Assembly: GCA_963662625.1 (NCBI GenBank)
Contig: OY759726.1
Location: forward strand, 192,001 to 256,000
DNA: 64,000 nucleotides
Reading direction: 5' to 3'
From: Nitrosopumilus sp.
GTDB lineage: Archaea > Thermoproteota > Nitrososphaeria > Nitrososphaerales > Nitrosopumilaceae
Positions 1-42,502 of the stretch are shown here, in pieces; positions within the stretch are counted from its first letter, which is position 1, and the number at the start of each line of letters is the position of its first letter. A program made the position numbers and the translations under genes. Under the pieces are notes generated by a model. The model had not been told where the DNA came from. It worked only from the letters and a program-made list of their open reading frames with translations, and ran no database searches.

Positions 1-162
1 TGGCCGGCGGCCCCGACGAGGACAAGGTGCGCCGCGCGGTGGCGAGGATCTCGGAGATAGTGTCGGGGAGCCCCGGGCGGCACGGCGGCTGGAAGTGACC
101 GGGGGGCGCCGCCATGGAACCCAGGGCCGGGACCTGGCGGGCATGGGCCCCGGCCTGGAAGC

Positions 163-933
163 TCACGTCGCGCATTCGCCGCCGCAGGGGGACTGGCCGC
201 CGGCGTCGGGCAGGGCGGCACCGCGGGACATGGCGCGCGCCATCCCCCTCAGCGTGTGGCCGTCGGGGGCCAGGGTCTGCCGGGGGAAGTGCTTGTTGGA
301 CTCCTCCACGCCGACGGCCATGGCGTAGAGGTCTGGGTGGGACTCCCAGATCTCGCGCCACCTCCGCATGCTGTTGAAGGGGCAGAAATGGCACCCGCTC
401 TTCGGCGGGACTGGGAGCCTCGCGCGCCTCACCATGGCCTCGCACGCGTCCCTGCCAATCCCGGAATCGACCAGCGGGTAGAGGTTGGTGACGTAGGGGG
501 CGGCCGGCGGCTTCATCCTGCGCGCCTCGCCGTGGTCTATCCCCATGTACTGGTAGACGTGCCCGCCGATCGCGCGGTAGTACGCGTGGACCGGCGCCAC
601 CTTGACGTCCCTGGTGCACCACCGCCAGACCTGCGAGGGGATGACCCCCCTGCCGGCGCACCGCTCCATCAGCGACCGGCCGCTGCGCGTCCGCACCACG
701 TCGAGGCGCAGCCCCCTCCTCCGGAGGTAGCGCCGCATCACCCCGAGGTAGGCGTACGTCTCCGGGATCTCGTCCCCGGTGTCGGCGAACACCACGCGAT
801 CCAGCGGCAGCCCCTCGCGCAGGATGTGCACTATCATGGCGGTCGAGTTCAGCCCCCCGCCGTAGCTCGCCGCGTAGGTGGCCCCCGCGTCCCTTTCCAT
901 CCCGATCGTGCCCCGGGTCCAGGCGTTTTCCAT
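163..933 (-). CDS. PAPS reductase-family protein (mobile-element type, DndC-like superfamily)
   Basis: PP-loop-like SYGGGLNS, FADTGDE, RWCTRDVK, GID, C-terminal SGCHFCPF. Confidence 0.8.
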   Translation of the reverse strand: MENAWTRGTIGMERDAGATYAASYGGGLNSTAMIVHILREGLPLDRVVFADTGDEIPETYAYLGVMRRYLRRRGLRLDVVRTRSGRSLMERCAGRGVIPSQVWRWCTRDVKVAPVHAYYRAIGGHVYQYMGIDHGEARRMKPPAAPYVTNLYPLVDSGIGRDACEAMVRRARLPVPPKSGCHFCPFNSMRRWREIWESHPDLYAMAVGVEESNKHFPRQTLAPDGHTLRGMARAMSRGAALPDAGGQSPCGGECAT

Positions 934-989
934 GCCGGCAAGCAGCCCGCGCGTATTTAGGGTTATACGCGGCCCCCATTCCGGTGCCC

Positions 990-2123
990 ATGGAGAGGAC
1001 GGTGGTGGACCTGTTCTGCGGCGCGGGTGGCATGTCCCTGGGGTTCGCCCAGGCCGGGTTCGAGGTGGCCTTCGGGGTGGACAGCGACAGGCACTCGGTC
1101 GGCACGTTTGCCCGCAACCACGGCCCGGCGTCCGTCGAAGACGTCGCCAACGTGGACGCGGAATACGTCCTGGACTCGGCCGGCATCGGCGGCGTCGGGG
1201 TCCTGGTCGGGTGTCCCCCGTGCCAGGGGTACAGCAGGGCCGGCGCCGGCAGGCTGCGCTCGGCGGGGCGGCCCACGGGGATGGGGGACCCGCGCAACTC
1301 CCTCTACTCCGAGTTCCTCAGGCTGGTGAGGGAGATCCGCCCCGAATGGTTCGTGATGGAGAACGTGCCCGGGATGCTCACTGTCGGCGGGGGGGCCGTG
1401 AGGAGGGGGATCCCGGCGGGCGCCGGGCCGGGGTACTCCGTGTCGTTCATGGTGCTCGACGCGGCCGACTTTGGCGTCCCGCAGCACAGGCGGAGGGCCA
1501 TAGTCATCGGCAACCGGCTCGGCGTCCGCAACCCGCGTCCGGGGAGGACCCACTGCCCGCCGGGGGAGGCGTGGGGGTCTGGGCTGCGGCCGCACGTGAC
1601 GGTGGCCGACGCGATATCGGACATGCCTCCCCTGGGGCCGGGGGAGGGGGAGCCGTGCGCGCCCTACCCGGAGGGGGCCCGGCCGACGGAATACCAGGCC
1701 GGGATGAGGAGGGGGTGCGACCGCCTGTACTGGCACGTCGCCAGGAGGCAGGGGGCGCGCGACCTCGGGATATTCGCGATGCTGCCGCCGGGCGGGAAGA
1801 TAGGGGACCTGCCGGGGCGAGTCAACCCGTGGCCCAACTCCTTCCTGGACAGGTACAGGAAGCTGCCGGTGGACGCGCCGTCGCACGCCGTCATATCCCA
1901 CCTGGCGAAGGACGGGATGACCCACGTCCACCCGGATCCTGGGCAGAACAGGAGCATAACCCCGAGGGAGGCCGCCAGGCTGCAGTCCTTCCCCGACAGC
2001 TACCGCTTCGACGGCCCGCCTGGCAGCCAGTTCAGGCAGATCGGCAACGCCGTCCCGCCGCTGCTGGCCAGGATGGTGGCGGAATCGGTGGCCCGCGCCG
2101 CGGCGGGTGCCGGCGCGGCGTGA
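990..2123 (+). CDS. dcm: DNA (cytosine-5)-methyltransferase
   Basis: Motifs [43 protein letters not shown]. Confidence 0.95.
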   Translation: MERTVVDLFCGAGGMSLGFAQAGFEVAFGVDSDRHSVGTFARNHGPASVEDVANVDAEYVLDSAGIGGVGVLVGCPPCQGYSRAGAGRLRSAGRPTGMGDPRNSLYSEFLRLVREIRPEWFVMENVPGMLTVGGGAVRRGIPAGAGPGYSVSFMVLDAADFGVPQHRRRAIVIGNRLGVRNPRPGRTHCPPGEAWGSGLRPHVTVADAISDMPPLGPGEGEPCAPYPEGARPTEYQAGMRRGCDRLYWHVARRQGARDLGIFAMLPPGGKIGDLPGRVNPWPNSFLDRYRKLPVDAPSHAVISHLAKDGMTHVHPDPGQNRSITPREAARLQSFPDSYRFDGPPGSQFRQIGNAVPPLLARMVAESVARAAAGAGAA

Positions 2124-2132
2124 CTCCGGCGG

Positions 2133-3584: not shown

Positions 3585-3585
3585 C

Positions 3586-5463
3586 TCAGAGGTCCGGCGC
3601 CGCCGTGTCGAACGTCTTGAGCTGCTTCTCCGTCGGCATTATGGAGACCTTGATCCTGTTGTTGTCGCTGCGCATTATGGCCTGCCCCTTGTGGAGCGTG
3701 GTTATCTCGTCTGCCTCCTTCTGGGAGAGCTTCAGTATCTTCTTGAGCAGCGCGGCCGTCTCCGGCAGCATCCTGAGCAGCACCTTCGTCGAGGAGTTGT
3801 TGATTATCCCCTTGCCGTGGACGTTCGTCATCACGTCGTCGAGCTCCTGGGTCATGACCAGCATGTGCACGTTCTCCTTCCTCCCGGACTTCACGATGTC
3901 GTTGAGGACCGCCGCCGTCGACTCCATCCGGAGCATGAACCACGCCTCCTCTATCACCAGGAGCTTGGGGACGTGCTCGGGGGCGTCGCGCATGTCCTGC
4001 CAGATCTTCATCAGTATCAGGGTGATCAGCATCGCCGTGACCCGGTCCTTGCTGGCCTTCCTCATCGCGATCGTGGTCATGTCGCCCACGTCCATCTTCC
4101 CGGCGAACATCCTGGCGAGGCCGCCGTCGACGAACTGGGCCAGGTAGGTGGCGGCCTTGCGGCAGTCGTCGGCGTCGTCGCCGCCGTCGGTCCTGAGCCT
4201 GTCCACCAGCTCCGCGGTGCTGCCGGCGCCGGCCGACCTGGCGAGGGTGAGGGAGCGGAGGTTCGGCGGCATCTCCACGACGTCGCAGAGTATGCCGGCG
4301 GCCTGGTCCGCGTTGGCCGACACCTTGAACGGGTCCAGCCCCATCTCGTCGCGGGTCATCATGTCCACGACCCCCATCCCCAGGTAGTCCGACAGCCGGA
4401 CGTATTCCCCGTGCAGGTCCAGGATGTACGCCATCACCCGGTGGTCCTCGCCGTACCTGGTCCGGATCATCTGGAAGAAGTTGTCCACGTAGGTCTTCAC
4501 CGTCATGCTCTTGCCGTACCCGGACTGGCCCAGTATGATCATGTTGTAGTTGGCCCTCCTGGAATAGTCGTATATCACCGGGGCGCCGGTTATCTGGTTG
4601 TCCCCCAGGTAGACCCCGTTTGGCTCCATCATGTCGGACGAGGAGAAGGGGAAGAACGCCGCCGTGGACTGGAGGGGGAAGGCGAACCTCTTCCCCCACC
4701 CGGCCAGCGTGTCCCTCTGCTTCCCGGCCACGGCCATGCAGGAGATCTGCCTCTGCCTGGCCTGCCGCTCGAACTCCCTGCACTCCTCGCGCAGGCTCTT
4801 CCTGTCGCGGTGCGTGACCACGGCCGTGACGCCGCACTCGAGCAGCGACGTCTCCTGGTTGTGCATCATGTCGTTGACCCTCCTGGCCTCGGCGGCCTCG
4901 ACCTTGTGCCTCCCCCCGATCTTGGCCTCCAGCGTGTTGGCGTGCCCCACCAGGAAGCTCCTGGCCCTTCCGTCAGATATCGGGGTCATGGAGACGTTGA
5001 CGATGCTGCATATCTCCGACAGCCTCATCACCCACGCCGGCCTTATGGACCGGGGGAAGTTGTACACGGTGTACGCCCTCCACCACGCCCCGGACTCCAT
5101 CTCCATCGACCTCAGGTTCTCCCTCCGGATCTCCCAGGACGGCGGGGACTCGGTCCGGACGAACTGGAAGCCGCTGCCCATCAGCAGCTTCCCGAGGTCG
5201 AACTTGGACGTCAGGTAGACGGCGTGGTCCATGTACTGGTGCTGGTGCCCGGCGGCGGCCACCTCGGCCCTCTTGTTTATTATCCTCATGTCCAGCCTCT
5301 TCTCCGCCGCGCCCACGATCCTGGCGAACGACGCCAGGACGTCGGCCTTCTCCTGCTCGCTGAGTATGTCGTAGTTCGTGGGGGTGAGCTTGTATGTCGT
5401 GGCCCGCGGCCTCTTCCTGGCGCCGGCCCCCCTCCCCTGGCGCGCCTTCCCACTGCCGAACAT
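3586..5463 (-). CDS. virB4: VirB4-like conjugation/T4SS ATPase
   Basis: YLG...NYNMIILGQSGYGKS (Walker A), ILDLHGEY, LLVIEEAW (Walker B), GRK...MTQ, L..GQA. Confidence 0.85.
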   Translation of the reverse strand: MFGSGKARQGRGAGARKRPRATTYKLTPTNYDILSEQEKADVLASFARIVGAAEKRLDMRIINKRAEVAAAGHQHQYMDHAVYLTSKFDLGKLLMGSGFQFVRTESPPSWEIRRENLRSMEMESGAWWRAYTVYNFPRSIRPAWVMRLSEICSIVNVSMTPISDGRARSFLVGHANTLEAKIGGRHKVEAAEARRVNDMMHNQETSLLECGVTAVVTHRDRKSLREECREFERQARQRQISCMAVAGKQRDTLAGWGKRFAFPLQSTAAFFPFSSSDMMEPNGVYLGDNQITGAPVIYDYSRRANYNMIILGQSGYGKSMTVKTYVDNFFQMIRTRYGEDHRVMAYILDLHGEYVRLSDYLGMGVVDMMTRDEMGLDPFKVSANADQAAGILCDVVEMPPNLRSLTLARSAGAGSTAELVDRLRTDGGDDADDCRKAATYLAQFVDGGLARMFAGKMDVGDMTTIAMRKASKDRVTAMLITLILMKIWQDMRDAPEHVPKLLVIEEAWFMLRMESTAAVLNDIVKSGRKENVHMLVMTQELDDVMTNVHGKGIINNSSTKVLLRMLPETAALLKKILKLSQKEADEITTLHKGQAIMRSDNNRIKVSIMPTEKQLKTFDTAAPDL

Positions 5464-5512
5464 GGGAGTCAGGTACGGCGGGCGCTTTTAAGGGCAGCGC
5501 GGTGGTGGAATC

Positions 5513-7018
5513 GTGGCCGACAAGCGTTACAAGCTGCACAGCATCAAGATGGACGCCGGCGCCATCGAGACGCTGGAGAAGTACAAGGTGGGGAAGGTCG
5601 ACGTCACCATAACGGGGGACGGGAGGTACCTGGTGCAGGAGCCGGTGATGCCGGCGGGGGGCGACGACCTCTACGACCAGATCATGAAGAAGATAGAGAT
5701 GAGCTTCGTGATGGACCACGAGGACGACTCCGACCCGGAGGTCATAGCGATAAACTTCGAGAGGGAGTTCTGGGAGACCACCAGGCGGCTCAACAAGTTC
5801 GAGGAGGCCAAGGGCATGTTCTCGAACATCGAGTACTACATCCGGCGCGACATCCTGGGCTTCCTCCTGATCGACCCGCTGATGAGGGACCCCGACATAG
5901 AGGACGTGCTGTGCTCGGCCCCGGCCAGGAACATCCGGGTGATCCACAAGAGGTACTCCGGGCGGTTCCACACGCTGGAGACCAACGTGGCGTTCGCGGA
6001 GTCCAGGGACATGGAGAAGTTCATCCAGAGGATGTACGGCCGCACCGGGACGGAGCCCACGGAGTCCTCCCCGATATCCGTCACGTACCTGCGCGACGGC
6101 TCCAGGATCAGCTGCACGTTCGGCTCCCAGGTGTCCTCCCCCGGGCCGGTCATAGCCATCCGGAAGTTCCCGGAGTCCCCGCTCACCGTCACCGACATGA
6201 TAAAGTCCGGGACGATGACGGCCGAGGTCGCCGCGTACATCTGGACCCTCCTCGACGCCAAGGCGGTCGGGCTGGTGATCGGGGTCACCGGCTCGGGGAA
6301 GACCACCCTGCTGGGCTCGTTCACCACCATGATGAACCCGAGGTGGAGGATCCTGACGGTCGAGGACACGCTGGAACTGCAGATACCGCACCCGGACTGG
6401 GTCAGGTACCGCACGCGCAAGTCGTACGGGCAGCTCTCCGACAAGTTCGACGTCACCATGCGGCACCTGATAGACTCGTCCCTGACGCAGCGCCCCGACT
6501 ACGAGATCATAGGGGAGATCAGGCTCGACGACATGGACATGCTGTTCCAGTCCGTCGGCACCGGCCACGGCGGGCTGACCAGCTTCCACGCCTCCAGCCC
6601 CCGCGGGGCCATAACCAGGATGAGGGGCAACAAGATATCGGACGGGGAGATAGCCCTGACGTGGTTCGCGGTGCACACGAGGGACGTGGAGCTCGACGGG
6701 ATCCGGGTCAGGAGGGTCAACGACGTCTCGGAGATAGTCCCGGACGAGGAGACCGGGAAGATAAGCGTGAAGCCCGTGTTCGGGTACGACGTCTTCACCG
6801 ACACTATAAAGAGGAAGGCCATGCTGCAAAACTGCGAGAGGTACGTCGAGGCCACCCACGTCTGCGGGATACGCGAGCCCGAGAAGGACATGGGGTACAG
6901 GATCGGGCTGCTCGACGAGTGCGTCGAGAAGGGGGCCACCGACCCCAGGTCGGTCTTCAGGATACTCGGGCGGTACTACTCCCGCGGGGGCGGGAAGGCC
7001 GGGCGGGCGGCGCGGTGA
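5513..7018 (+). CDS. Type II/IV secretion ATPase (VirB11/TadA/FlaI family)
   Basis: DPDIEDV, IRKF, GVTGSGKTT, TVEDTLEL, RPDYEIIGEIR, TGHGGLTSFHA. Confidence 0.9.
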   Translation: MADKRYKLHSIKMDAGAIETLEKYKVGKVDVTITGDGRYLVQEPVMPAGGDDLYDQIMKKIEMSFVMDHEDDSDPEVIAINFEREFWETTRRLNKFEEAKGMFSNIEYYIRRDILGFLLIDPLMRDPDIEDVLCSAPARNIRVIHKRYSGRFHTLETNVAFAESRDMEKFIQRMYGRTGTEPTESSPISVTYLRDGSRISCTFGSQVSSPGPVIAIRKFPESPLTVTDMIKSGTMTAEVAAYIWTLLDAKAVGLVIGVTGSGKTTLLGSFTTMMNPRWRILTVEDTLELQIPHPDWVRYRTRKSYGQLSDKFDVTMRHLIDSSLTQRPDYEIIGEIRLDDMDMLFQSVGTGHGGLTSFHASSPRGAITRMRGNKISDGEIALTWFAVHTRDVELDGIRVRRVNDVSEIVPDEETGKISVKPVFGYDVFTDTIKRKAMLQNCERYVEATHVCGIREPEKDMGYRIGLLDECVEKGATDPRSVFRILGRYYSRGGGKAGRAAR

Positions 7019-7318: not shown

Positions 7319-8644
7319 TCATCCCCGGCCATCGTCGTCGTCCCCGCCGTCCCCGGCGTCGGCGGCCCCGGCGCCGTCCGGCCCGCCGTCCCCGTCCCCC
7401 CTGCCGCCCCCTCCGGCGCCAGAAAGCGAGCCCGCGAACCCGCCCAGCGCGCCCTTCCACATGCCCTGGCCGGACGCCGCGCCCTTGGCCATCCCGGTGG
7501 CGACGTTGGCGGCGATGAACGCCGAGGACATCACGGCGCCGGCCACGATCGTGGTGGACTGGTTGACGATCCTCCCGATGAAGGGGACCATTACCAGGGG
7601 GAGGGCGACGGACATGAACAGCGTCCCCATGGAGGATATCCAGACGTACATCATGGCCGCGCCGACGTCCGTCCCCCCAGAGGCCACGGCGACCGGGGAG
7701 GTGATCGCGCTTGCCGCCGTGGCCGCGCCAACGACCGTTATTATCGACGTCAGCAGCGGGATCATGAACAGCGCCGGCAGCGCCGTCAGCAGCTTGTCGG
7801 CGACGGCGTCAAACCCCGGGAACAGCCTGAGGATCAGCAGCAGGGGGAGCGCGCCTATGATCATCCCGGTCAGCATGTCTGTTATGACGGCGATCATGAC
7901 CGACATCAGCCCCACCTGGATGGTCACGATCGACTTCACCGCCCCGAGGAAGAGGTCGCTCCACAGCTGCGTGATTCCCCCCGAGAGTAGCCGCATCAGC
8001 CACTCTACCGGGTCGTCGGTCTCGATGTCGACCTGCTGGCTGCCGGCCATCTGCCATATCACGTAGTTTACCCTGAACTCTGGCCTGCAGACGTCCATCG
8101 CCCTGTCCAGGTCCGGGAACGGGCCCCACACCTCCCCGCCCTTCCTGTAGGGGGAGCCGTTGTAGGCGTCTATGACGTCCGCGTCCGTCCACGACGCCGG
8201 GCACGGGGCGTCCGGGTCCCCGGTGTAGAGCCCGTTCAGCACGGCCTTGGAGCCGTCCTCCATGAGCTGCGCCCCGGCGTCCCAGATGAAGGGGAACGCC
8301 GCCAGCAGCATGATGGAAAAGAGCATGTAGGCGGCCTTCTGGCGCAGGAAGTCCTGGCGGAACGCGAAGTGGAACGCTATGGCCAGGATTATACCGATGG
8401 TGAACACCATGTACGCCGCCCACCTGAGCTGCTCGTACAGGCCGAAGATCTCGTTCCCCGTCCCCAGGGCCGTGACGTAGTCGAACCGCGGCAGGTCGGT
8501 CATCTCCCCCGCCAGGTTGACCTCCATCACCCCGGCCATGATCCCGGCCACCAGCGCCAGCGCCACGTTGACCAGTATGACCGACACTATCACCACCGCG
8601 CCGTCCACCAGCTCAGTCAGGAACCCAGGGATCCTCAGCCTCAC
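7319..8644 (-). CDS. Polytopic membrane protein, VirB6/TrbL-like (paralog 1)
   Basis: Multiple TM segments, Gly/Ala-rich tail, adjacent to VirB4/VirB11; shares VLNxLY..D.D.PC and VCRPEF.V.YV..QM with 16366-18336. Confidence 0.65.
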   Translation of the reverse strand: MRLRIPGFLTELVDGAVVIVSVILVNVALALVAGIMAGVMEVNLAGEMTDLPRFDYVTALGTGNEIFGLYEQLRWAAYMVFTIGIILAIAFHFAFRQDFLRQKAAYMLFSIMLLAAFPFIWDAGAQLMEDGSKAVLNGLYTGDPDAPCPASWTDADVIDAYNGSPYRKGGEVWGPFPDLDRAMDVCRPEFRVNYVIWQMAGSQQVDIETDDPVEWLMRLLSGGITQLWSDLFLGAVKSIVTIQVGLMSVMIAVITDMLTGMIIGALPLLLILRLFPGFDAVADKLLTALPALFMIPLLTSIITVVGAATAASAITSPVAVASGGTDVGAAMMYVWISSMGTLFMSVALPLVMVPFIGRIVNQSTTIVAGAVMSSAFIAANVATGMAKGAASGQGMWKGALGGFAGSLSGAGGGGRGDGDGGPDGAGAADAGDGGDDDDGRG

Positions 8645-10362: not shown

Positions 10363-10839
10363 CTACCGGACGGTGGCGCCGGCCGCTTCTCCCGGGGGCG
10401 CCCCGTCGATCCGTATGGTGTCAAAGGACACCCTCTTCTCCCTGACGGCGTCCCTTATCCTCCTCTGGACACTGCTGAGCCCGGCCTTGCCCGACTTTAC
10501 GTCCACCAGCGCCACCTCGATCGGATCCTCGCCGTCCATGTTCCGAAAGATGACGTAATCCACCGGGGCCCCCATGAACCTGGCCTCTGACGGCCTGTAC
10601 TTTTCGCAGAACTCGCTCAGGAGGGGGGCCATGTGCTCGCCTATCTTCCCCTTCAGGACGTTCCTTGACTTGTCCACCGCCGCCCTGGATTCCTCCCTTA
10701 TCCTCTCCTCCACGCCTGCCTCCTGGCTTGCCCTGTACGCCTCAAACCTGGAATTCCTTTGGGCGCGCATCGCGGCGTAAACTATCGCCATCCCGGCCAG
10801 CAGCCCCGCCACGGCCGCCGCCACCGCCTCGAACGTCAA
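10363..10839 (-). CDS. Membrane-anchored endonuclease related to archaeal Holliday junction resolvase
   Basis: N-terminal TM; LKGKIGEHMAP, RFMGAPVDYVIF, VDVKSG..LS..QRRIRDAV. Confidence 0.8.
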   Translation of the reverse strand: MTFEAVAAAVAGLLAGMAIVYAAMRAQRNSRFEAYRASQEAGVEERIREESRAAVDKSRNVLKGKIGEHMAPLLSEFCEKYRPSEARFMGAPVDYVIFRNMDGEDPIEVALVDVKSGKAGLSSVQRRIRDAVREKRVSFDTIRIDGAPPGEAAGATVR

Positions 10840-12229: not shown

Positions 12230-12339
12230 GGGGGCAACATGTCGGCGGCGATTTAAGGGACGGCGAGCCCTGGCCCCCTGAAAGCCGCCATGGATTCGCC
12301 GTGCCCGCGCGGCCGCCCCATGAAACAATATATTCCGTC

Positions 12340-26308: not shown

Positions 26309-26309
26309 C

Positions 26310-30232: not shown

Positions 30233-30326
30233 CGGCCCCTCCCGTACGCCATGCAGTAGTGTACCAGGCCGGCGGGATCCGATCCGATCCGGGTGTCGCG
30301 CCGGCACCTCTTGCGGTATCCGGTGA

Positions 30327-35332: not shown

Positions 35333-36612
35333 CCCTTCCCCCCCGCCAGCGACACGTTCCTCCTGGCCACGGCAAACGCCGCGGAGTCGGTCTCGCACCC
35401 CAGGAACTTCCTCCCCAGCGAGACGGCGGCCGCGCCAAACGCGCCGCTGCCCATGAACGGGTCGGCGACCAGCTGCCCGGCCCTGCTGAGCCTCCCGATG
35501 TAGTACGCCGCCTCCACCCCGGACTGCGCCCACGGGTGCTCCTCCTTCTTCCCGGGCTCCGACCTCACCACGTCGGAAACCGTCACCTTCCCGCGGTACC
35601 TCCCCCTGGTGTACCACAGCATAGGCTTGTAGCCCACGCTCACGCCGTTGCGCCACATCCTGGCGCGGCCGCCGGTGTGGATCACGGCGAAGAGCCACTG
35701 GTACTCCAGCCCGGCGCCGGAGAGCATGCGGATCGCGTCTGGCAGCATGTAGTTGCCGGCGAGGCACACCAGCGACCCGCCGTCCTCCAGGTGTTCCATG
35801 GCGTACTCCCCGAGTTCCGCGTAGACCGCGACGTTCTTCCTGTCGTAGGGCGGGTCGGTGATTATCAGCCTTATCTTCCCGGGGGGTTCCACGTCCTGGA
35901 ACGGCCCGTGGTGCAGAGACGCCCCCTTGGCAGCCGGCACCCTGGCCCTCCTGGCCCTCCTGGCCTCCTCCTCGTAGGCCTCCTCCTTCTTCAGCCTGGA
36001 GTAGACGCTGCTGACGGTGTTCCGTGACCTGCCGTCGTCGATGCTGTCCAGCAGCCTCCCGTACTTCTCGTCGGTCTTGGCCTTTTTCCCGATCTCCACC
36101 AGCTTGTCCAGCGTCCCGTGGCTCACCCCGACGTAGTCCGATATCACGTCCCTGGTGCGCCCCTGGCCGCCCCCACGCCTTCCCGCGGGAGCTGCGGCCG
36201 AACCGGCCCCGCCGGCGCCGCGCCACCCCTTCCCGCCTCCAGGCCCCGCCGCCTTCCCCCCGCCGGCGCCCCCGCCCCTAGAGTTCTCCCTGCCGGCCCT
36301 GGCCACGGGGGGGCCCATCGCCTCGTGTATCGCCACTATCTCACGGGCCGTAAAGTCCTTGCGCTGGGTGTTCTCGTGCAGTTCCCCAGTGAGCGGGGAC
36401 TTGAGGTCCACGACCACCACCGGCACGCTGGATATCCCCAGCGACCTGCACGCCTCGAGCCTCCTGCGCCCGGCGACCAGCCTGTTCTCCCTGGTGACCA
36501 CTATCGGGTGCAGCAGGCCGATCTCCCCTATGCTGTCCCGCAGCCCGTCCAGGTCGCCAAGATCCACCCGGTGCCTCCTCCCGACGCGGATCTTCTCCAC
36601 CGCCAGCTTCAT
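35329..36612 (-). CDS. ParB-like N-terminal domain fused to an adenine DNA methyltransferase
   Basis: GLLHPIVV...LVAGRRRLEA, EN.QRKD; ITDPPY before DPFMGSG (beta-class order). Confidence 0.85.
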   Translation of the reverse strand: MKLAVEKIRVGRRHRVDLGDLDGLRDSIGEIGLLHPIVVTRENRLVAGRRRLEACRSLGISSVPVVVVDLKSPLTGELHENTQRKDFTAREIVAIHEAMGPPVARAGRENSRGGGAGGGKAAGPGGGKGWRGAGGAGSAAAPAGRRGGGQGRTRDVISDYVGVSHGTLDKLVEIGKKAKTDEKYGRLLDSIDDGRSRNTVSSVYSRLKKEEAYEEEARRARRARVPAAKGASLHHGPFQDVEPPGKIRLIITDPPYDRKNVAVYAELGEYAMEHLEDGGSLVCLAGNYMLPDAIRMLSGAGLEYQWLFAVIHTGGRARMWRNGVSVGYKPMLWYTRGRYRGKVTVSDVVRSEPGKKEEHPWAQSGVEAAYYIGRLSRAGQLVADPFMGSGAFGAAAVSLGRKFLGCETDSAAFAVARRNVSLAGGKG

Positions 36613-36789
36613 CCCGCGCCCCACACGGCGGGGCCCATCCCCATTGGCCGTCTAGGCCGCCTCCCATGACCCGGCCGGCCGGCCGCACAATTCGCACCTT
36701 CCGTCGTGATCCCCCGAATCGCAGTCACGCTCGATCCTGACGCCGAGGGCCTCGGCACATTCGGCGCACGCCCACGCGACGTCCATGCG

Positions 36790-37020
36790 TCACCCGGCGC
36801 CGCCAATGGCGCGCCGCTCCAGGGCGTCCCGGGCGTCCAGCCTGGCGCGGGCCCTCTCGATGTCATCTTCCAGGACTTTCCTGGTGGGGTACTTGATCTG
36901 CCCGCGGCGGAGGCGCGGATCCCATGTCCAGAACGCGCCGCCGCCGTCGCGGATGTAGCGCCTCCCCTCCCCGTCCTCGTAGATCCGGTGCGACTTCAGG
37001 CACCTGAGCCCCGAAGGCAT
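36790..37020 (-). CDS. Small hypothetical protein
   Basis: Member of the coupled minus-strand operon. Confidence 0.5.
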   Translation of the reverse strand: MPSGLRCLKSHRIYEDGEGRRYIRDGGGAFWTWDPRLRRGQIKYPTRKVLEDDIERARARLDARDALERRAIGGAG

Positions 37021-37343
37021 CAGGACCTCCCGCCTGGAGGATCCGCCGGCAGGCCAGCCGACCGCCCGGCCATGATCTTCGCCTCAGCGCGATCCGGGGA
37101 ACCCGTGATTATCCTGATGGCGCTGTGGACGTCCTCGACCGATCTCTCGTACTCCTTCCCGCGCAGCAGCGACCACGTCCTGGAGAATTCCCGGCCATCA
37201 CGGCGCGCCAGGGCGGGCTGGACGTGCCCGTCCGCGCAGTGCCTGACGTAATCCGCGACGTGCATCACCGGGTGGGGCACCCCCCCGGAACCGGGACGGG
37301 CGTGCCTGAGGTATTCGATGACGTGCCACCGCTGGTCCATCAT
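37020..37343 (-). CDS. Small hypothetical protein
   Basis: ATGA-coupled operon member. Confidence 0.5.
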   Translation of the reverse strand: MMDQRWHVIEYLRHARPGSGGVPHPVMHVADYVRHCADGHVQPALARRDGREFSRTWSLLRGKEYERSVEDVHSAIRIITGSPDRAEAKIMAGRSAGLPADPPGGRS

Positions 37344-37540
37344 GACTCCCCCCGCGGGGCAGCCTTCCCGGCGCCGGTGATGCCGGACCCGGCCCGGCCC
37401 AGGTGGTACATGGACTGGGCCAGGGACTCGGTCTCCCCGCTCGTGATGCCGGGGGTCATCATGAGCCGGACCACGCTTTCCATGGCGTCGGAGACGTCCG
37501 ACTTGGCCTGCCGGTACCTCATGGCCTTCAGCTTCTCCAT
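37340..37540 (-). CDS. Small hypothetical protein
   Basis: MEKLKAMRY...; coupled to the downstream gene. Confidence 0.45.
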   Translation of the reverse strand: MEKLKAMRYRQAKSDVSDAMESVVRLMMTPGITSGETESLAQSMYHLGRAGSGITGAGKAAPRGES

Positions 37541-37718
37541 CACCCGCCCCCCCACGCGCGGCAGCTGTCGCACAGCCCGCGCCGCGCCGGACCCGGACGC
37601 TTCAGCTCCCCCCCCGCAGCTCATGCATGCCCGGCGTCCAACCCGCACCCCGTGCAGGCCCGCCGCCCCGGGGCGTATTCGTGGACAGACATCCTGAAGC
37701 ACCTCGGGCATCTCTCCT

Positions 37719-38213
37719 TCATCCGATCCACGGCCCGCCCACGGCGCGTTCCAGGCCGCCGCCCGCCGCGCGCGGGACGGCCAGCGGCTTCCATTCCTTC
37801 AGCGCCGGGATCCCCCTGCACGCCCAGACGAGGATCCTGGTGCAGTCGGCAGAGAGTTCCGCGGCCTCCCACCGGTCATAACTGGAGCTGAACCTCGCCG
37901 CGACCGTCGTGTCGCGGTCATACTCCCCGTACACGCAGCCGCACGGCTCCTCCCCGGAGCACGCAAAGTGCCCGGCATCCCAGTCATGCAGGTTGACCGC
38001 GTGCCCGCACGCGCAGAGGCGGGACTCCAGGGCTGGAGGGTCCATGTCAGGGTCCCCCAGGCCGGAGAGGTCGGCCGGCAGGCACCCGCGCGGGGCCGCC
38101 AGCCCGCCAGATCCGCCGTCCCCACGGCGGCCTGGCACGGCCGAGCCACGGCGCCCCCGGCAGGCCGGGCCGCCGCGAGGCGCCACCATCCCTGGACAGT
38201 TCCCGTCAGTCAT
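37719..38213 (-). CDS. Cys/His-rich hypothetical protein
   Basis: CACGHAVNLH...C....CGC; start uncertain. Confidence 0.4.
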   Translation of the reverse strand: MTDGNCPGMVAPRGGPACRGRRGSAVPGRRGDGGSGGLAAPRGCLPADLSGLGDPDMDPPALESRLCACGHAVNLHDWDAGHFACSGEEPCGCVYGEYDRDTTVAARFSSSYDRWEAAELSADCTRILVWACRGIPALKEWKPLAVPRAAGGGLERAVGGPWIG

Positions 38214-38219
38214 TGTCCA

Positions 38220-38603
38220 TCAGCTCCGCAAGGTGAGGTTCGCAGAACAGGTGGTCATCGCGCGAGTCATCGTACCCCCTACACCAGGGGCAGTTCGTCG
38301 GGTTATCTGCCTCCAGTACGGAGGAAGCACGCGGCACGACCCTTCCGCCATCCGCCCCAGGCTCGCGCCGGCGCGGTTTTTCCGGTGGGCGGCGCGAGCC
38401 GATTCCCTCTTCCTGACCACGTCCGGAGTGGACGCCCGGTGCCACGTCTTCGCGGCCAGTCCCATCCCGCGGGCGGCCATCCCCCTGCACTCCCGGGAGC
38501 AGTGCCGCTGCCGGGGGTACGCCGTGCGAAACCCCCCGCCGCACCACCTGCACGTCCTGCGGATCCACGCGTCCCGTCCCGGCGGTTTCCCGCGCGGCGA
38601 CAT
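38220..38603 (-). CDS. Arg-rich zinc-finger protein
   Basis: CRWCGGGF...HCSREC. Confidence 0.5.
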   Translation of the reverse strand: MSPRGKPPGRDAWIRRTCRWCGGGFRTAYPRQRHCSRECRGMAARGMGLAAKTWHRASTPDVVRKRESARAAHRKNRAGASLGRMAEGSCRVLPPYWRQITRRTAPGVGGTMTRAMTTCSANLTLRS

Positions 38604-38938
38604 GGTCAGGGGGCCCCGTGGCCGTTCATCCCCCCGCCTGATGCCCGCGCCGCGCTTTTTGCGGACGCGGCACCCAAAAACTGTCATGTTAACTGAAACT
38701 TGGTGTGGGGTAAGGTGGGGGCGGGGACGGCGAAATCCCCGAAGTCTCAAAAAAGGCATCAACCCGCCCCTCCCGAAATGAAGTCGTTTTCGTCGAATTC
38801 GTCTCTGATCGGCTCTCGCCGCTTCCCACCGGCGCCGGTGTGAAAAAACCGGCAAGTATCGCAAAGTCCCCGGAGGGAATCGCGGGGGAGTGTCTCGTGG
38901 CACCCCCGCGCCCCGTCCCGGAAGCCAGGTCAGCGTAA

Positions 38939-39427
38939 TCAGGCATTGACCAGCAACCCCCCGGGGGCCACGCCCCCAGCGACGTTGGGGTCGTAAGCCC
39001 CTTTCGTGCCGCGCGTGAGCCTCCCGGTGCCGTCGACGCCAAGCACCCCGCTGACGGCCGCGCGCAGCACGACGGCCATCCAGTCAACATCCCCGCCCCA
39101 TTCCCCCACCGCGGCCACCACCTGTTCAAGCGCCAGGGCCTGGGCATGGTAGCTGACATAGTTCACGACCACCCTCTCAGGGGTGATCCCTTCCGCCTCC
39201 TCGAACGACTCGACGGAGCGGCGGAAGCCGCGGGCCTCCTGCACGGCGGCGGCGCCCCACTTGGACTTTAGGACCCTCTTGCACTCCTCGCAGTGGATCC
39301 CCGCCTCCACGTACTTTCCCGGGGCGGGGTGGAGCAGGCGGGAGCCGGCGCACACGCTGGACTCCCCCAGCAGGTAAAAGTGGGAGCACGCGTCGACGTC
39401 CTTGCCTATCCACCCGATCAACGTCAC
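38939..39427 (-). CDS. Hypothetical protein with a Zn-binding motif
   Basis: HF....S.C...HCEEC; GTGA overlap. Confidence 0.55.
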   Translation of the reverse strand: MTLIGWIGKDVDACSHFYLLGESSVCAGSRLLHPAPGKYVEAGIHCEECKRVLKSKWGAAAVQEARGFRRSVESFEEAEGITPERVVVNYVSYHAQALALEQVVAAVGEWGGDVDWMAVVLRAAVSGVLGVDGTGRLTRGTKGAYDPNVAGGVAPGGLLVNA

Positions 39428-40122
39428 CCGTTCCTCCTGATTATTTCCTTGGCGTTGCGCACCGGCAGCTCGCACCCGACGCAGGTGTGCAGGCCCTTGT
39501 ACTCCCCCTCGTCCCTGACGAAGAACCTCACCTTCGGGGCAGCGCAGGAGCACCACTTCTCGACGTGCTTCCCGAGCTTCTCCTCGTCACGCCCGTCCCC
39601 GGCGCCCGCCGGCCCGGATCCGGCCTGCCCGCCATCCCTCCCCTGGTCGAGGTTGGCCACCTTCCCGGTGCTCTTGACCTCTTCCACGAACTGCGCGATC
39701 AGGTCGGGGGGTATGTGCTTGCGTATCCCGTTGCGCTCGGCCTTGCTGTGCGCCTTGGTCTCGGCGGTCGCGTCATAGTACGTGCCGCCGCCCTTCTTCA
39801 CCCCGTACTGGGGCTGGCGGCCGACCCCCTCGTAGATTATCCCGGTGCCGGCCTCCCTCACCCGCACCCTCGCGTGGTACACCGCGTCGGTCCCCTCCCC
39901 CTGGACGGAGATGTCCGACGCCACGGTCTGCACCACGATCCCGTGGCGCGCCAGCCAGGACGCAAAGGCGCGCACGCCGTCATAGCTCATGGCGTGCTGC
40001 CCCTGGACCTCGTACAGCCAGTCGCCTGAGGTGAGGTATTTTTCGCTGTTCACTATCTGGGCCTCGTCGGCCTCGTTGACCAGGTTGTAGACGGAGTCGT
40101 CCCGCCTGACGATCTCACTCAT
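39424..40122 (-). CDS. Putative single-strand annealing protein (Rad52/Sak/ERF-like)
   Basis: Beta-rich core followed by AETKAHSKAERNGIRKHIP; phage early-operon position; C-terminal CxC...CxxC. Confidence 0.5.
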   Translation of the reverse strand: MSEIVRRDDSVYNLVNEADEAQIVNSEKYLTSGDWLYEVQGQHAMSYDGVRAFASWLARHGIVVQTVASDISVQGEGTDAVYHARVRVREAGTGIIYEGVGRQPQYGVKKGGGTYYDATAETKAHSKAERNGIRKHIPPDLIAQFVEEVKSTGKVANLDQGRDGGQAGSGPAGAGDGRDEEKLGKHVEKWCSCAAPKVRFFVRDEGEYKGLHTCVGCELPVRNAKEIIRRNG

Positions 40123-40297
40123 CGCCGCCGTCCTCCACGACTATCCTGCACACGGGCCTCGTCCCCCCGTGCATCGCCCCGATCACCCCGTGCATCTTCT
40201 TCCGCAGCGCGTCCCCATTCCTCGCGGATATGTCGACCAGCGTGACGATGTTCCGCAGCTCGTGGTACTCCAGCGTGACGGAGGCGGTGGAGCTCAT
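40115..40297 (-). CDS. Small hypothetical protein
   Basis: MSSTASVTLEY...; overlap-coupled. Confidence 0.5.
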   Translation of the reverse strand: MSSTASVTLEYHELRNIVTLVDISARNGDALRKKMHGVIGAMHGGTRPVCRIVVEDGGDE

Positions 40298-40485
40298 CCG
40301 GCCGCGGCCTCCACCATGGCGTCGCGCATTATCCTCAGCCTGGACGCCTCCGGGACCTTCCCCGACACCCAAAACTCGTCCCTGCCGCACGCGTCGCAGA
40401 GGTCCACATCGTACGCGCTGTCCCCGAACCTGACGGTTATGGTGGACGTCTTGGGGTTGCCGTCCCTGCAGGCGTAGCGCGTCAT
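40294..40485 (-). CDS. Small zinc-binding protein
   Basis: ACRDG...LCDAC; ATGA overlaps. Confidence 0.5.
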   Translation of the reverse strand: MTRYACRDGNPKTSTITVRFGDSAYDVDLCDACGRDEFWVSGKVPEASRLRIMRDAMVEAAAG

Positions 40486-40640
40486 GCAGCGGCCCCCTTG
40501 TCGATGTATTCCCGTATGGCCAGGTCGACGAACTGGCTCCTGTTGGTTATGGCGGAATCCACCTTATTGCTGACCAACTCGTCTATCTTCTCGCAGAGGC
40601 CGTTTCTGATCGCGACGGTGGACCATCCTTTATTCACCAT
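40482..40640 (-). CDS. Ribbon-helix-helix regulator (52 aa; absent from the ORF track)
   Basis: Manual translation MVNKGWSTVAIRNGLCEKIDELVSNKVDSAITNRSQFVDLAIREYIDKGAAA; first gene of the operon. Confidence 0.8.
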   Translation of the reverse strand: MVNKGWSTVAIRNGLCEKIDELVSNKVDSAITNRSQFVDLAIREYIDKGAAA

Positions 40641-40791
40641 ATAGGAATATTAACTGAAGCCTTTCTATTAAACGTTTAAGTGAATATTCAGTAAAGCAAA
40701 AGCTGACCCAATTTCACACTCCGCCCGCGCCGGGCCGGGCGCCCGCCGGGAATTTAGAAGAACTTTTAACACCATAACTGAATATTATATC
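40641..40791. promoter_or_regulatory. Divergent promoter/operator region
   Basis: Palindromes TTAAACGTTTAA (40668-79) and TGAATATTCA (40681-90); AATATTCAGT (40683-92) inverted to ACTGAATATT (40777-86); TAACTGAA at 40651 and 40775. Confidence 0.7.
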
Positions 40792-41187
40792 ATGGTAGAG
40801 AACACGAAGGAAAACTGGTCGACCACCAGCGTCAGGTCCACCCTGGTGGAGGAAATAAAGAAGATTCTGCAGACCAAGGCGGCAAAAAGGGAGGGCCTCA
40901 CGAACGTGAGCCAATTCGTGGACACGGCCGTCAGGGACCTGATCGACAGGATCGAGTCCGAGCGCATGACGCACCTGAACATGTACGACGACCACGTCAA
41001 GATACTCGACAACCACCTGGGAAACATAGGCAGGATCGTGTCGGTCTACTTCAAGAGGGGGCGCCGGTCATGGTGCGACTACTGCGAGGAGCCAGGCTGC
41101 GTCCACGTCCAGTACGCCTGGGAGATCCCCAAGGTGGGGAAGATCCTCAGGGGGATGGGGATGAAACCCCCGCCGTCGAGGGCGTGA
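40792..41187 (+). CDS. RHH regulator with a C-terminal Zn-binding (SWIM-like) domain
   Basis: WSTTSV...NVSQFVDTAVRDLI; WCDYC....CVH. Confidence 0.75.
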   Translation: MVENTKENWSTTSVRSTLVEEIKKILQTKAAKREGLTNVSQFVDTAVRDLIDRIESERMTHLNMYDDHVKILDNHLGNIGRIVSVYFKRGRRSWCDYCEEPGCVHVQYAWEIPKVGKILRGMGMKPPPSRA

Positions 41188-42454
41188 TCCTGGCCCGGGT
41201 TTCAGCGCGCCCCGACGGCCGCCAGCCGCCCGTCACGCCACCCGGCCCGGCGGCGACGCCGGCCGGTTCCGGGGAGGTCCTCTCCAGCGCCTCTATCCTC
41301 CTGACCAGCGCGTCTATCATCCTTGACTTTTCCTCCAGCTCGGAGTTCTTGGATTCCAGCGCCGAGTTCCTCGCGGCCATCTCGTCCACCCTTTTCTGCT
41401 TCTCCTTGATCTCGAACGCGTGCCTCTCCGCGGGGTCCACGGTGAGTTTCGGGATGGCGGCGGTGAACTCGGAAAAGCTCTCCTCGATGGTGGGGCGGAG
41501 GTACACCCCGTCCAGCCCGCGCATGTGCCCCATGAGCTTCTCGGCGATGTTGTAGTTGACGTCGGCCAGCTTTATCACCGTGTTGAACCGCTTGCGGAAC
41601 ATGTAGATCGGGGCCTTGTCGTACCGCCTGCTGTTGCCGTCAAGCATCACCGCGGACTGCACCCCGGCGGCGGCGGAGAGGTTCCGCATCATGTTCCTGG
41701 CGCCGCCGCTCCCCAGATGTTCCCCCCCGCGGCCGTTCTCCGACGCGAACAGCGGCGACTCGCCTGTGATCTCCTCCCCGTTGCGCCTCCTGGCCCCAAG
41801 GTACCTGTCAAGCGCCCCCCTGGCCTCCGGGGTCAGGAACGCCCAGTATTCCTCCCTGCTCTTCTCGTATATCGTCACGCCGTAGCACCACCTCGGCCTC
41901 GTCTCCGGGGCTCCAGGATCCGGCATGTCGACCAGGTGCCTCACCCGGAGCACCGGATCCTCCAGGGCCCCGGGCCTTATCCCGGTGGACGCCAGGAAAT
42001 GCACCAGCGCCTTCGTCCTCAGCTTGTTGGTCCCGGCCAGCATGGCCAGTATCTCCCCGTTGGTGACCGGGCTGTTCCCCGAGCCAGCCCCGCCGTCCCT
42101 CCTGATCCCCATCCTGACGCTCTCCTTGTGCCACGACATCTCGTTCATCCTGATGAACTTCTCGATCCCGTTGATCTTGGCGGCGACGGTGACCTGCCGG
42201 TTCCCCTTCTCCTCGTTGTGCAGCACCCATTCCTTCACCGCGTCGGTCGCCATCCGGGTGTCAAAGGAGGCAAACTCGTCGTACGCGTCCGCCCCCGACA
42301 CCAGTTTCTTCCAGTGGAGGAATCCCATGAACAGCCTCATCGAGACGGAGTACGATCTCTTTGTGTGCCGGTTGTGGATCCCCCGCAGGAACTCGCGGTA
42401 GGACTTCTGCTCCCCGCCCATCCTATCCGCGTATTCCAGCCAGCTTTCCGCCAT
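41147..42454 (-). CDS. int: Tyrosine recombinase/integrase
   Basis: LASTGIRPGAL, YMFRKRFNT, AEKLMGH, GVYLRP; C-terminal coiled coil. Confidence 0.9.
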   Translation of the reverse strand: MAESWLEYADRMGGEQKSYREFLRGIHNRHTKRSYSVSMRLFMGFLHWKKLVSGADAYDEFASFDTRMATDAVKEWVLHNEEKGNRQVTVAAKINGIEKFIRMNEMSWHKESVRMGIRRDGGAGSGNSPVTNGEILAMLAGTNKLRTKALVHFLASTGIRPGALEDPVLRVRHLVDMPDPGAPETRPRWCYGVTIYEKSREEYWAFLTPEARGALDRYLGARRRNGEEITGESPLFASENGRGGEHLGSGGARNMMRNLSAAAGVQSAVMLDGNSRRYDKAPIYMFRKRFNTVIKLADVNYNIAEKLMGHMRGLDGVYLRPTIEESFSEFTAAIPKLTVDPAERHAFEIKEKQKRVDEMAARNSALESKNSELEEKSRMIDALVRRIEALERTSPEPAGVAAGPGGVTGGWRPSGRAETRARITPSTAGVSSPSP

Positions 42455-42502
42455 GGGGATGGTGCGGCCCGGATCTAAATAAACACCACAGAAGATGGCA
42501 TG

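Follow-up and report, generated by a model that had tools for sequence, protein, structure and literature searches.

A probable 114.6-kb integrative conjugative element with an unusual replisome operon in a Nitrosopumilus genome

We analysed a 64,000-nucleotide stretch of the Nitrosopumilus sp. contig OY759726.1 (G000:C1:192001-256000; hereafter the window) and find that its first 42.5 kb form the right-hand part of an integrated element of 114,576 bp (genome 119927-234502), the other 72 kb of which lie left of the window edge. This is probably an integrative conjugative element (ICE) of the thaumarchaeal type that carries an unusual, host-derived replisome operon. The source genome, G000, is a single contig of 1,858,698 bp with a GC content of 63.4%; coordinates marked 'genome' refer to this contig, and window position 42503 corresponds to genome position 234503. 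It encodes a full-length amoA (PF12942, 389.5 bits) and thus belongs to an ammonia oxidiser despite its GC content, as a preliminary description made from the window alone had claimed. That description had proposed an integrated element with conjugation and replication genes of its own and no virion genes, which synteny and gene content support.

High GC keeps all six frames open, with 314 open reading frames (ORFs) of at least 80 amino acids in the window, and genes were therefore called by codon-position GC, with heuristic start codons. The element contains 110 ORFs, 88 of them on the minus strand, and its GC is 66.3% versus 63.2% in the rest of the genome. The right-hand boundary and the gene beside it are as follows.

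Window 1 to 42502, no strand: right-hand 42.5 kb of the integrated element (synteny with relatives and direct repeat)
Window 42503 to 42512 (genome 234503), plus strand: core of the right attachment site (attR), TCATCCCTCG, with its twin attL at genome 119927-119936
Window 41147 to 42454, minus strand: tyrosine recombinase (integrase; NCBIfam XerA, E 5.4e-7)

The ends were located by querying five relatives with 20 kb of right-flank DNA and then comparing the matching regions with G000. The site is empty in G002 (same genus), in G003 and in G029 (another genus), where the match to genome 117.5-119.9 kb abuts the match to 234.5-235.05 kb; the same two flanks stand 114.6 kb apart in G000. An empty site in G002, of the same genus, dates the insertion to after the origin of that genus. 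The 10-bp direct repeat TCATCCCTCG has just two plus-strand copies in the 1.86-Mb genome, both perfect and each exactly at a synteny break, and the reconstructed empty site aligns to the sites in relatives. The insertion point is a 3-4 bp gap separating two co-oriented protein genes; the upstream one keeps its stop codon thanks to the repeat. On the right, attR overlaps the stop codon of a flanking SRPBCC/polyketide-cyclase-like gene (window 42503-43051, minus strand), and the chromosomal flank beyond encodes a class I lysyl-tRNA synthetase and ELP3. A blastn-short search of the right end against genome 100-232 kb, unable to pick up a repeat of just 10 bp, missed the true left end, and the ends were taken from synteny instead. 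The preliminary description had the element extend over window positions 1-42480; its right end falls within about 25 bp of attR (42503-42512), but the element runs 72 kb further left.

The block that holds the insertion site is inverted in G000 relative to G003, G029 and G001 (around genome 102-120 kb and 234.5-235.7 kb). The gene at genome 101.6-102.2 kb abuts the 235.7-kb side in these relatives and the 104.7-kb side in G000.

A single tyrosine recombinase stands at the right end, where an integrase had been proposed. The XerA match is accompanied by 572 homologues at E<=1e-5; among the 120 listed, many carry PF00589 or PF02899 and some are named integrase or XerD. The protein itself had no Pfam match at E<=0.01, and tblastn found no paralogue in the genome.

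The element encodes a transfer machinery, part of which lies left of the window.

Window 3586 to 5463, minus strand: VirB4/TrbE-like conjugation ATPase (P-loop_TraG, E 3.7e-16; AAA_10)
Window 5513 to 7018, plus strand: FlaI/GspE2/CpaF-type secretion ATPase of the type IV pilus assembly type (PF00437, T2SSE, E 2.4e-29)
Genome 174036 to 177593, left of window: TrwB/VirD4-like coupling ATPase of 1185 amino acids (TrwB_AAD_bind, E 2.4e-7, 30.4 bits, cut-off 20.5)
Genome 177596 to 179452, left of window: T2SSF/TadC platform protein (T2SSF, E 6.6e-17)
Window 16366 to 18636, minus strand: polytopic membrane protein, weakly TrbL/VirB6-like (PF04610, E 0.0024, 18.1 bits)
Window 7319 to 8644, minus strand: membrane protein with 10 segments, possibly the second 'VirB6-like' protein of the preliminary description (no Pfam, NCBIfam or PHROG match)
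Genome 191079 to 191519, left of window: two-segment protein of 146 amino acids (T4SS_pilin, E 0.008, below cut-off)

The VirB4 assignment made earlier holds: besides its Pfam matches, the protein resembles the VirB4 structure 4ag5 in the Protein Data Bank (PDB; E 1.7e-8). Its best full-length plasmid relatives are encoded by Thermococcus and Sulfolobus conjugative plasmids (22-23% identity over 96%), and relatives occur in 15 of 61 related genomes. These were found by a genome search, later than a pattern-based contig search with the VirB4 protein, which matched 14 stretches, none encoding a relative. The neighbouring ATPase, previously read as VirB11-type, is instead of the FlaI/GspE2/CpaF type based on its PDB matches (2oap, E 2e-54; FlaI, 1.2e-48; versus about 2e-10 for VirB11), and is 55-65% identical to its counterparts in five related elements. 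Looking leftward for VirD4, as the preliminary description had suggested, recovered the VirD4/TrwB-like ATPase and TadC, which favours an ICE.

Two VirB6-like proteins had also been named. One has the sub-threshold TrbL match (window 16366-18636); it contains seven hydrophobic segments, is 47% identical to its homologue in G016 and 33% to that in G029, and returned nothing in a profile search of the PDB. The other, if it is the protein at 7319-8644 (41% identity to G016, 33% to G029), finds no family support. A 227-amino-acid protein with four segments and no family match adjoins a ParB-like gene left of the window.

The unusual part of the element is its replisome operon, in which genes for a D5-type helicase, a family B DNA polymerase (PolB), an XPD-like helicase and a PriL-like protein follow one another.

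Window 35329 to 36624, minus strand: ParB_N domain fused to an N6/N4 DNA methyltransferase (PF01555, E 2.9e-11; PF02195, E 7.2e-8)
Window 32996 to 35398 (frame open to 36226), minus strand: D5-type superfamily 3 (SF3) helicase (DUF5906, E 7.8e-23; Pox_D5; D5_N)
Window 32300 to 32900, no strand: AT-rich candidate replication origin (inverted repeats and short iterons)
Window 31366 to 32391, minus strand: family-2 glycosyltransferase (PF00535, E 3.9e-10)
Window 27860 to 30334, minus strand: family B DNA polymerase of the cellular archaeal PolB1 type (PF00136, E 9.8e-40)
Window 26310 to 27866, minus strand: XPD/Rad3/DinG-like iron-sulfur (Fe-S) helicase (Helicase_C_2, E 1e-16; ResIII)
Window 25373 to 26308, minus strand: PriL-like primase large subunit with Fe-S domain (PF04104, E 3.1e-11)

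All five replication assignments of the preliminary description (ParB-methyltransferase, SF3 helicase, PolB, XPD, PriL) are borne out by these matches and, apart from ParB-methyltransferase, by conserved residues. The D5-type protein has a Walker A motif and matches the PDB primase-helicase 7ola (E 1.7e-29) over the helicase part only, with no primase domain recognised in it by PDB profile comparison or Pfam; of 301 genomes of the family, 26 encode a related helicase. The D5-type protein is likely the replication initiator and helicase. The best PDB match of PolB is 1s5j, of the archaeal PolB1 type (E 1.3e-118), and the enzyme of the element retains what we take to be the Exo I motif and motifs A, B and C of the polymerase. 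The XPD-like helicase has Walker A and DEAH motifs with cysteines 88, 101, 106, 117 and 141 between them, presumably marking the XPD Fe-S cluster, and four C-terminal cysteines of the PriL-like protein (213, 281, 290 and 296) presumably mark its Fe-S domain. PriS is missing from the element, the sole PriS match in the genome being the host gene (genome 799578-800075).

Directly downstream of the D5 gene, 600 bp of DNA (window 32300-32900) fall to 40-47% GC versus about 68% around, and contain a 26-nt inverted repeat (88% complementary) as well as repeated words, TCGCCGT(T/A)TT and others containing CTATG. From these features we propose the region as a candidate replication origin. Self-replication, as claimed before, would follow from this gene content. 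The same description had called the minus-strand genes mostly ATGA/GTGA-coupled, which is overstated: 9 of 17 minus-strand junctions overlap (22011-40640), and only 3 do so by 4 bp, given heuristic starts.

The operon recurs in relatives. In G016 the order ParB-methyltransferase, D5, PolB, XPD, PriL is kept (39-43% identity from D5 to PriL, 33% for ParB-methyltransferase), with the ParB-methyltransferase homologue just upstream of the D5 gene, and in G116 contig 26 the order D5, PolB, XPD, PriL is kept at 34-45% identity. The XPD-like helicase occupies the same operon position in both (43% identity to the G016 homologue and 40% to that of G116). The GC content of the operon DNA is 38% in G016 and 50% in G116.

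The element PolB is 44% identical to the host's own PolB (genome 47071-49269). Against isolated viruses its identity reaches no more than 26% in the 10 matches listed from a phage collection, and against IMG/VR contigs no more than 29%. Each of the 81 sampled genomes of the class has one host-type PolB copy; extra, element-type copies occur in G016 and G116, with a further divergent copy on a 68-kb contig of G094. We built a tree (LG+G4) from 34 chosen sequences, namely all element-type copies, 22 hosts of the family and 8 sequences from other families. The PolBs of G000, G016 and G116 form a clade with a Shimodaira-Hasegawa-like approximate likelihood ratio (SH-aLRT) support of 100, which the G094 copy joins (96), and together these are sister to 21 host sequences of the family, inside the order. 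Provisionally, the element PolB would thus branch beside the replicative PolB of the host family, not with viral or casposon polymerases.

The G094 copy, 36% identical to the element's PolB, lies on a contig of 68,160 bp and 32.7% GC (G094:C3), which carries none of the element's other genes; the genome, from another genus, comprises three contigs.

Between the integrase and the long minus-strand gene set lies a small early region.

Window 40792 to 41187, plus strand: putative DNA-binding regulator of 131 amino acids, divergent paralogue of the 52-amino-acid gene (no Pfam or PHROG family)
Window 40482 to 40640, minus strand: putative ribbon-helix-helix (RHH)-like regulator of 52 amino acids, first gene of the long minus-strand set
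Window 39424 to 40122, minus strand: conserved protein of 232 amino acids without family, probably the gene earlier called 'SSAP-like' (single-strand annealing protein)

Of the divergent RHH pair reported before, the divergence and the pairing stand: the two small proteins are true paralogues (42% identity over 45 amino acids, E 4e-11). The fold is less certain. We take the sequences to fit the RHH pattern, and the model of the 52-amino-acid protein has an extended N-terminus followed by two helices (mean predicted local distance difference test, pLDDT, 66.7), which may be consistent with RHH; Foldseek returned seven matches for it, all with E>7. The 'phage-like regulation' ascribed to the element would come down to these two small paralogous, DNA-binding-like proteins. 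The SSAP-like assignment at 39424-40122 is unsupported, though not disproved: the protein has no match in Pfam, NCBIfam or PHROG, its eight homologues besides itself are all unannotated, and its mediocre model (pLDDT 60.6) matched nothing in the PDB by Foldseek at E<=0.001. Its nearest Atlas clusters are viral hypotheticals (0.95), with RecT (0.84) and Sak (0.83) below the lead threshold. Nor could a 'nuclease' at window 22011-23516 be confirmed, as Pfam, NCBIfam, PHROGs, the PDB and the Atlas gave nothing usable.

Apart from its operon, the element closely resembles ICEs already described in Thaumarchaeota, as far as the parts of the published accounts considered here go. Abby et al. 2018 (PMC5797428) describe ICEs with a tyrosine integrase, att repeats, VirD4- and VirB4-like ATPases and VirB6- and VirB2-like proteins, as well as RHH proteins of the CopG-like kind, methyltransferases and nucleases; a primase-SF3 helicase fusion and homologues of TFIIB are also described. 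The ten ICEs of Krupovic et al. 2019 (PMC6563490) encode VirB4 and VirD4, VirB6, VirB3, TadC, FlaI/PilT ATPases, a prepilin peptidase as well as pilins; TFIIB stands upstream of ParB, a relaxase is lacking and the replication modules are varied. Beltran et al. 2023 (PMC9905601) regard conjugative elements in Nitrososphaeria as established.

Like ICE-1 (NCAV2-E1) and ICE-2 of Ca. Nitrosocaldus cavascurensis and like NitEve-E6, the element has a tyrosine integrase with direct-repeat att sites, a VirB4 and VirD4 pair, weak VirB6-like and VirB2-like candidates, TadC and a FlaI-type ATPase. As a candidate counterpart of their TFIIB-ParB pair it has a TFIIB gene directly upstream of a gene with a weak ParB match (E 0.032), and it shares with them small CopG/RHH-type regulators (RHH being putative here), many DNA methyltransferases, nucleases, and replication proteins of its own (SF3 helicase fusions in NCAV2-E1, PolB in NitEve-E6). 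The published ICEs lack a relaxase, and none was recognised here by general Pfam scans with no aimed search. Its size is within the published range. The 'possibly undescribed class' of the preliminary description is therefore not upheld, the gene set being that of the published thaumarchaeal ICEs (PMC5797428, PMC6563490).

There are also differences from these ICEs in their published descriptions. Only NitEve-E6 among them is reported to have PolB, which is casposon-like and retrieved no cellular polymerases (PMC6563490), unlike the element PolB with its 44% identity to that of the host and its place beside the host family clade. We found no mention of PriL or of an XPD-like helicase for published thaumarchaeal ICEs, of which supplementary tables may list more. 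The SF3 helicase lacks a recognisable primase domain, unlike the published primase-SF3 fusions, and the element also encodes its own TATA-binding protein (TBP) and Alba, unlike the published ICE description. Integration is between two protein genes with a 10-bp repeat, compared with tRNA genes and 21-24-bp repeats for ICE-1 and ICE-2. The preliminary description held PolB, PriL and two helicases to be atypical of ICEs. An ICE combining a cellular-type PolB, PriL, an XPD-like and an SF3 helicase was not found in the literature searched, on which Table S2 and data file 1 of PMC6563490 may bear, but one published ICE has PolB and others have a primase-SF3 fusion.

More distant likenesses are found elsewhere. 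Among plasmids, the best full-length relatives of VirB4 are found on the Sulfolobales conjugative plasmids (pNOB8 type) and on the large plasmid of Thermococcus nautili, all described as archaeal, conjugative and without a relaxase. The comparison covered VirB4; the plasmids are much smaller (24-42 kb for the Sulfolobus records listed) and belong to another phylum or class. The Ced and Ted systems of Crenarchaeota share, by description, a minimal core derived from a type IV secretion system, made up of VirB4-like ATPase, VirB6-like protein and VirB2-like pilin (PMC9905601), but they are domesticated import systems of the chromosome and no mobile elements. Casposons of families 1 and 2 and ThaMY3-E2 are, in the part of PMC6563490 considered, likewise integrated thaumarchaeal elements with a family B polymerase. 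Unlike casposons, the element showed no Cas1 or HNH pair at the replisome operon in general scans, with no search aimed at Cas1. Its PolB is flanked by a glycosyltransferase, the D5 helicase and the XPD-like helicase, its ends are direct repeats beside a tyrosine recombinase, and its PolB is of the cellular PolB1 type, not the casposon or protein-primed type. ThaMY3-E2 pairs PolB with MCM, the element here with an SF3 helicase.

A number of observations weigh against an intact ICE. The integrase's own PF00589 score is sub-threshold (15.8 bits), although it is the sole PF00589-like match in the genome, and the att core is merely 10 bp. The TrbL score of the VirB6 candidate (18.1 bits) is below the cut-off of 25.9, and the pilin candidate (genome 191079-191519) and the ParB-like assignment of the 353-amino-acid gene left of the window are likewise sub-threshold. 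No relaxase family appeared in 70 Pfam queries on element ORFs, with no search aimed at relaxases and about 40 of the 110 ORFs without a Pfam scan. No catalytic primase was recognised in the element by the PriS search of the genome or by domain comparison of the D5 protein. Branches in the PolB clade are long (0.77-0.99), and its placement drew a warning of possible attraction from the tree program. No capsid or terminase was found in the element, but portal and double-jelly-roll families were outside the search, about 40 of 110 ORFs had no Pfam scan and 3 ORFs were in no library. One C5 methyltransferase gene (window 19054-19569) is internally deleted and aligns to residues 15-128 and 299-359 of an intact paralogue; this remnant, together with a 1.37-kb duplicate of chromosomal sequence at 99.9% identity, is compatible with a long-resident, decaying element. 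The sequencing evidence, four runs of one study available as contigs and none recorded as RNA, speaks neither for nor against excision or expression: attR is spanned, in its integrated state, by contigs from runs X1, X2 and X3, and no excised circle or empty site was seen in the run contigs, which are blind to rare forms. None of the loose contig ends listed falls at window 42503. In X1, the contig spanning element and flank has a depth of 25.9 versus 21.9-28.8 for flank contigs, such depths not being copy numbers.

These observations could also be explained by an immobilised, vertically inherited remnant that no longer excises, replicates or transfers. The integrated junction alone in three runs, the internally deleted methyltransferase, the exchange with the chromosome (1.37 kb at 99.9% identity) and an element GC of 66.3% near the 63.2% of the rest of the genome would all fit, and an integrase-less, probably immobilised ICE is reported from a related archaeon in the part of PMC5797428 considered. 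We nevertheless regard it as unlikely. Both att repeats are perfect, the frames of the integrase, VirB4, VirD4-like, D5, PolB, XPD-like and PriL genes are open and full length, the catalytic motifs sought in PolB and in the XPD-like, PriL-like and D5 proteins are present, and the empty site in G002 makes the insertion younger than the genus.

Less likely still is a composite of at least two elements accreted at one hotspot, such as an ICE, a defence island and, at the right end, a separate cryptic element able to replicate. G029 has a related ICE without the D5/PolB/XPD/PriL block in the compared region, and nested elements are documented, with NitEve-E7 inside NitEve-E6 (PMC6563490, in part). 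Also in its favour, genome 148-160 kb, inside the element, is of low GC (52-61%) with HerA-like and weakly NurA-like genes, and the ORFs at 151.5-155.8 kb are 36-57% identical to sequence on the VirB4 contig of G034. However, the genome has a single recombinase candidate, and a genome-wide plus-strand count found no internal copy of the att core. A local tblastn of the 110 ORFs against relatives placed a conjugation block (1368-1440 kb), a 'leading-like' block (1456-1472 kb) and the replisome (1481-1492 kb) of G016 in the same cyclic order as in G000, with the best integrase-like match (25% over 208 amino acids) at another point of the circle; a single circle, linearised at a different attachment point in each genome, would produce this pattern. 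The G016 element covers at least 1354-1492 kb. G029, G002, G034 and G001 also have the conjugation genes (27-65% identity).

A provirus of undescribed capsid type was also considered, whose pilus and secretion genes would function in entry, in egress or in superinfection. D5-type helicases and ParB-methyltransferases are common in viruses, most ORFs are unannotated (72 without family entered the last scan), and the protein at 39424-40122 resembles viral hypothetical clusters. The preliminary description had advised a look for capsid and terminase genes left of the window. The HK97 capsid profile PF05065 had no genome match at E<=1 (it rings in 4 of 14 control genomes), and the best score of the terminase profile PF03237 (Terminase_6N) was 9.9 bits at 1.49 Mb, outside the element. 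PHROGs found nothing structural in 20 large or early-region proteins. Among the 72 unannotated ORFs, a set that left out ORFs below 45 amino acids and three border-straddling ORFs (genome 131661-132164, 151514-152533 and 171623-173041), PHROGs matched three 'tail' families besides a methyltransferase, a restriction endonuclease, two nuclease families and one family without known function, and no virion gene was recovered. Given that neither HK97 capsid nor terminase was matched, that virion PHROGs were limited to the small domain traced for phrog_30, and given a full VirB4, VirD4, TadC and FlaI set common to related elements and a PolB far from viral polymerases, we consider a provirus extremely improbable.

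The phrog_30 'tail' match lies in a 156-amino-acid ORF (genome 139550-140020) over about 100 profile positions. The same profile gives matches in 8 of 14 control genomes and one more in G000, and we rejected it as a virion tail gene because it is a common small domain; the other two 'tail' families are assumed to be the same ORF.

The genes that complete the ICE interpretation, concerned with expression and segregation, lie mostly left of the window.

Genome 167906 to 168625, left of window: TFIIB homologue (Zn_Ribbon_TF; a four-sequence profile matches PDB TFIIB, E 2.3e-6)
Genome 191529 to 192098, plus strand: TBP gene, with its 3' end in window 1 to 98 (PF00352, E 1.8e-11)
Genome 189962 to 190348, left of window: Alba (E 2.9e-7)
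Genome 160666 to 161736, left of window: actin-like protein (Pfam)

The ParB-like gene encodes 353 amino acids, follows TFIIB directly with a 4-bp overlap, and has ParB 4umk as its top PDB match (E 0.032) and no Pfam match.

Judging from gene content, the ICE could excise, be induced, replicate autonomously and transfer. The integrase would recombine the two repeats and release a circle, with the divergent pair of small paralogous DNA-binding-like proteins beside it setting the switch. The circle would replicate with its own operon: the D5-type SF3 helicase may open the adjacent AT-rich iteron region, the PolB derived from the replicative PolB1 of the host family would extend, the PriL-like Fe-S subunit may work with the host PriS or an unrecognised primase, and the XPD-like helicase would assist. 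Actin-like and ParB-like proteins may segregate the circle, and the element's TBP, TFIIB and Alba could steer its own transcription and packaging. Transfer would use the VirB4-like ATPase, the VirD4-like coupling ATPase, the VirB6-like pore and the VirB2-like pilin candidate, with a TadC/FlaI-type type IV pilus bringing cells together and no recognisable relaxase. In a new host, the many DNA methyltransferases and an ArdC-like region may protect the DNA.

More tentatively, the elements of G000, G016 and G116 could represent a lineage of conjugative episomes that long ago captured the PolB1 of the host family, PriL and an XPD-like helicase, these being combined with an SF3 helicase of viral type. 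With their own TBP, TFIIB, Alba and actin-like segregation, they might replicate and be expressed largely independently of the host, in the manner of a mini-chromosome, and the PolB clade might be as old as the host family. This remains a possibility that we would sooner doubt than accept. Two of the three members exceed 100 kb, and that of G116 is known from a 19.7-kb contig alone.

As a kind of element, the ICE is not new; its replisome operon is the part that we did not find described in the literature searched. It indicates that a conjugative element can harbour a replicative polymerase of cellular type along with the large subunit of a primase, and bears on how archaeal mobile elements acquire replisome parts and exchange them with their hosts. 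It also adds a well-bounded case to the unsolved question of archaeal conjugation without a relaxase. We know of no genetic system for ammonia-oxidising archaea, and an element delimited to the base, a candidate origin beside a helicase gene and a complete-looking operon recurring in two genera are concrete parts. ICEs and cryptic elements are called an obvious source of replicons by Krupovic et al. 2019 (PMC6563490, in part).

The remaining assigned genes of the element within the window are the following.

Window 24470 to 25225, minus strand: ATP-grasp (R2K clade) protein (PF14243, E 6.9e-10)
Window 19649 to 21931, minus strand: 'exported protein' of about 720-760 amino acids, with one N-terminal hydrophobic segment at residue 20
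Window 19054 to 19569, minus strand: C5 cytosine methyltransferase remnant (PF00145, E 7.2e-30 over two stretches)
Window 11081 to 12328, minus strand: C5 cytosine DNA methyltransferase (PF00145, E 1.3e-63)
Window 10363 to 10839, minus strand: Hjc-related endonuclease with an N-terminal hydrophobic segment (PF10107, E 1.8e-28)
Window 984 to 2123, plus strand: C5 cytosine DNA methyltransferase (PF00145, E 1.3e-57)
Window 163 to 933, minus strand: PAPS-reductase-domain protein (PF01507, E 6.7e-7)

The 'exported protein' has no match in Pfam, NCBIfam or PHROG and no homologue in the G016 and G029 elements compared. In the methyltransferase remnant, about 115 N-terminal and 60 C-terminal residues are joined in one frame; the middle, including the target-recognition part, is gone. 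Left of the window, the element also encodes an N6/N4 methyltransferase, an RNase H/HhH protein and large proteins, secreted or membrane-bound, that match no family.

The left 28 kb of the element (genome 120-148 kb) is a minus-strand array of genes mostly without assigned function. A module of 260-760 bp, comprising an upstream region and the first ~35 codons (MEQVAKYRGELEW...), recurs in it at 95-99% identity, with copies at about 124.8, 132.6, 135.0, 139.2, 141.7 and 143.4 kb. Between the copies lie ArdC-N-like, SNase-like and rIIA/HSP90-like (GHKL) genes, several of which have relatives in G016. By analogy, this part may resemble a plasmid leading or anti-defence region.

Other segments are shared with the chromosome. 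The 1374-bp segment at the left end of the element (genome 120378-121751) is 99.9% identical to chromosomal positions 100102-101475, 20 kb away; it encodes a 222-amino-acid exported protein and a 152-amino-acid protein, and the chromosomal copy is missing at the matching place in G001. About 1.5 kb at genome 148.8-150.3 kb, within the low-GC region, is 82-97% identical to genome 1808.6-1810.3 kb.

Just outside the element, a single ORF of 2579 amino acids (genome 109524-117263) fills 8 kb that the syntenic regions of G002, G003 and G029 lack. On the other side, 162 kb of sequence contain one tRNA, tRNA-Arg(GCG) (window 47795-47871). The DNA downstream of this tRNA measures 1.6 kb in G003 but about 6.5 kb in G000, where it is of lower GC and encodes an HNH endonuclease (window 47795-54300), and contigs of runs X2-X4 leave the reference exactly at window 47870 and continue differently. 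The 3' end of this tRNA-Arg is thus probably the site of a second, small variable island.

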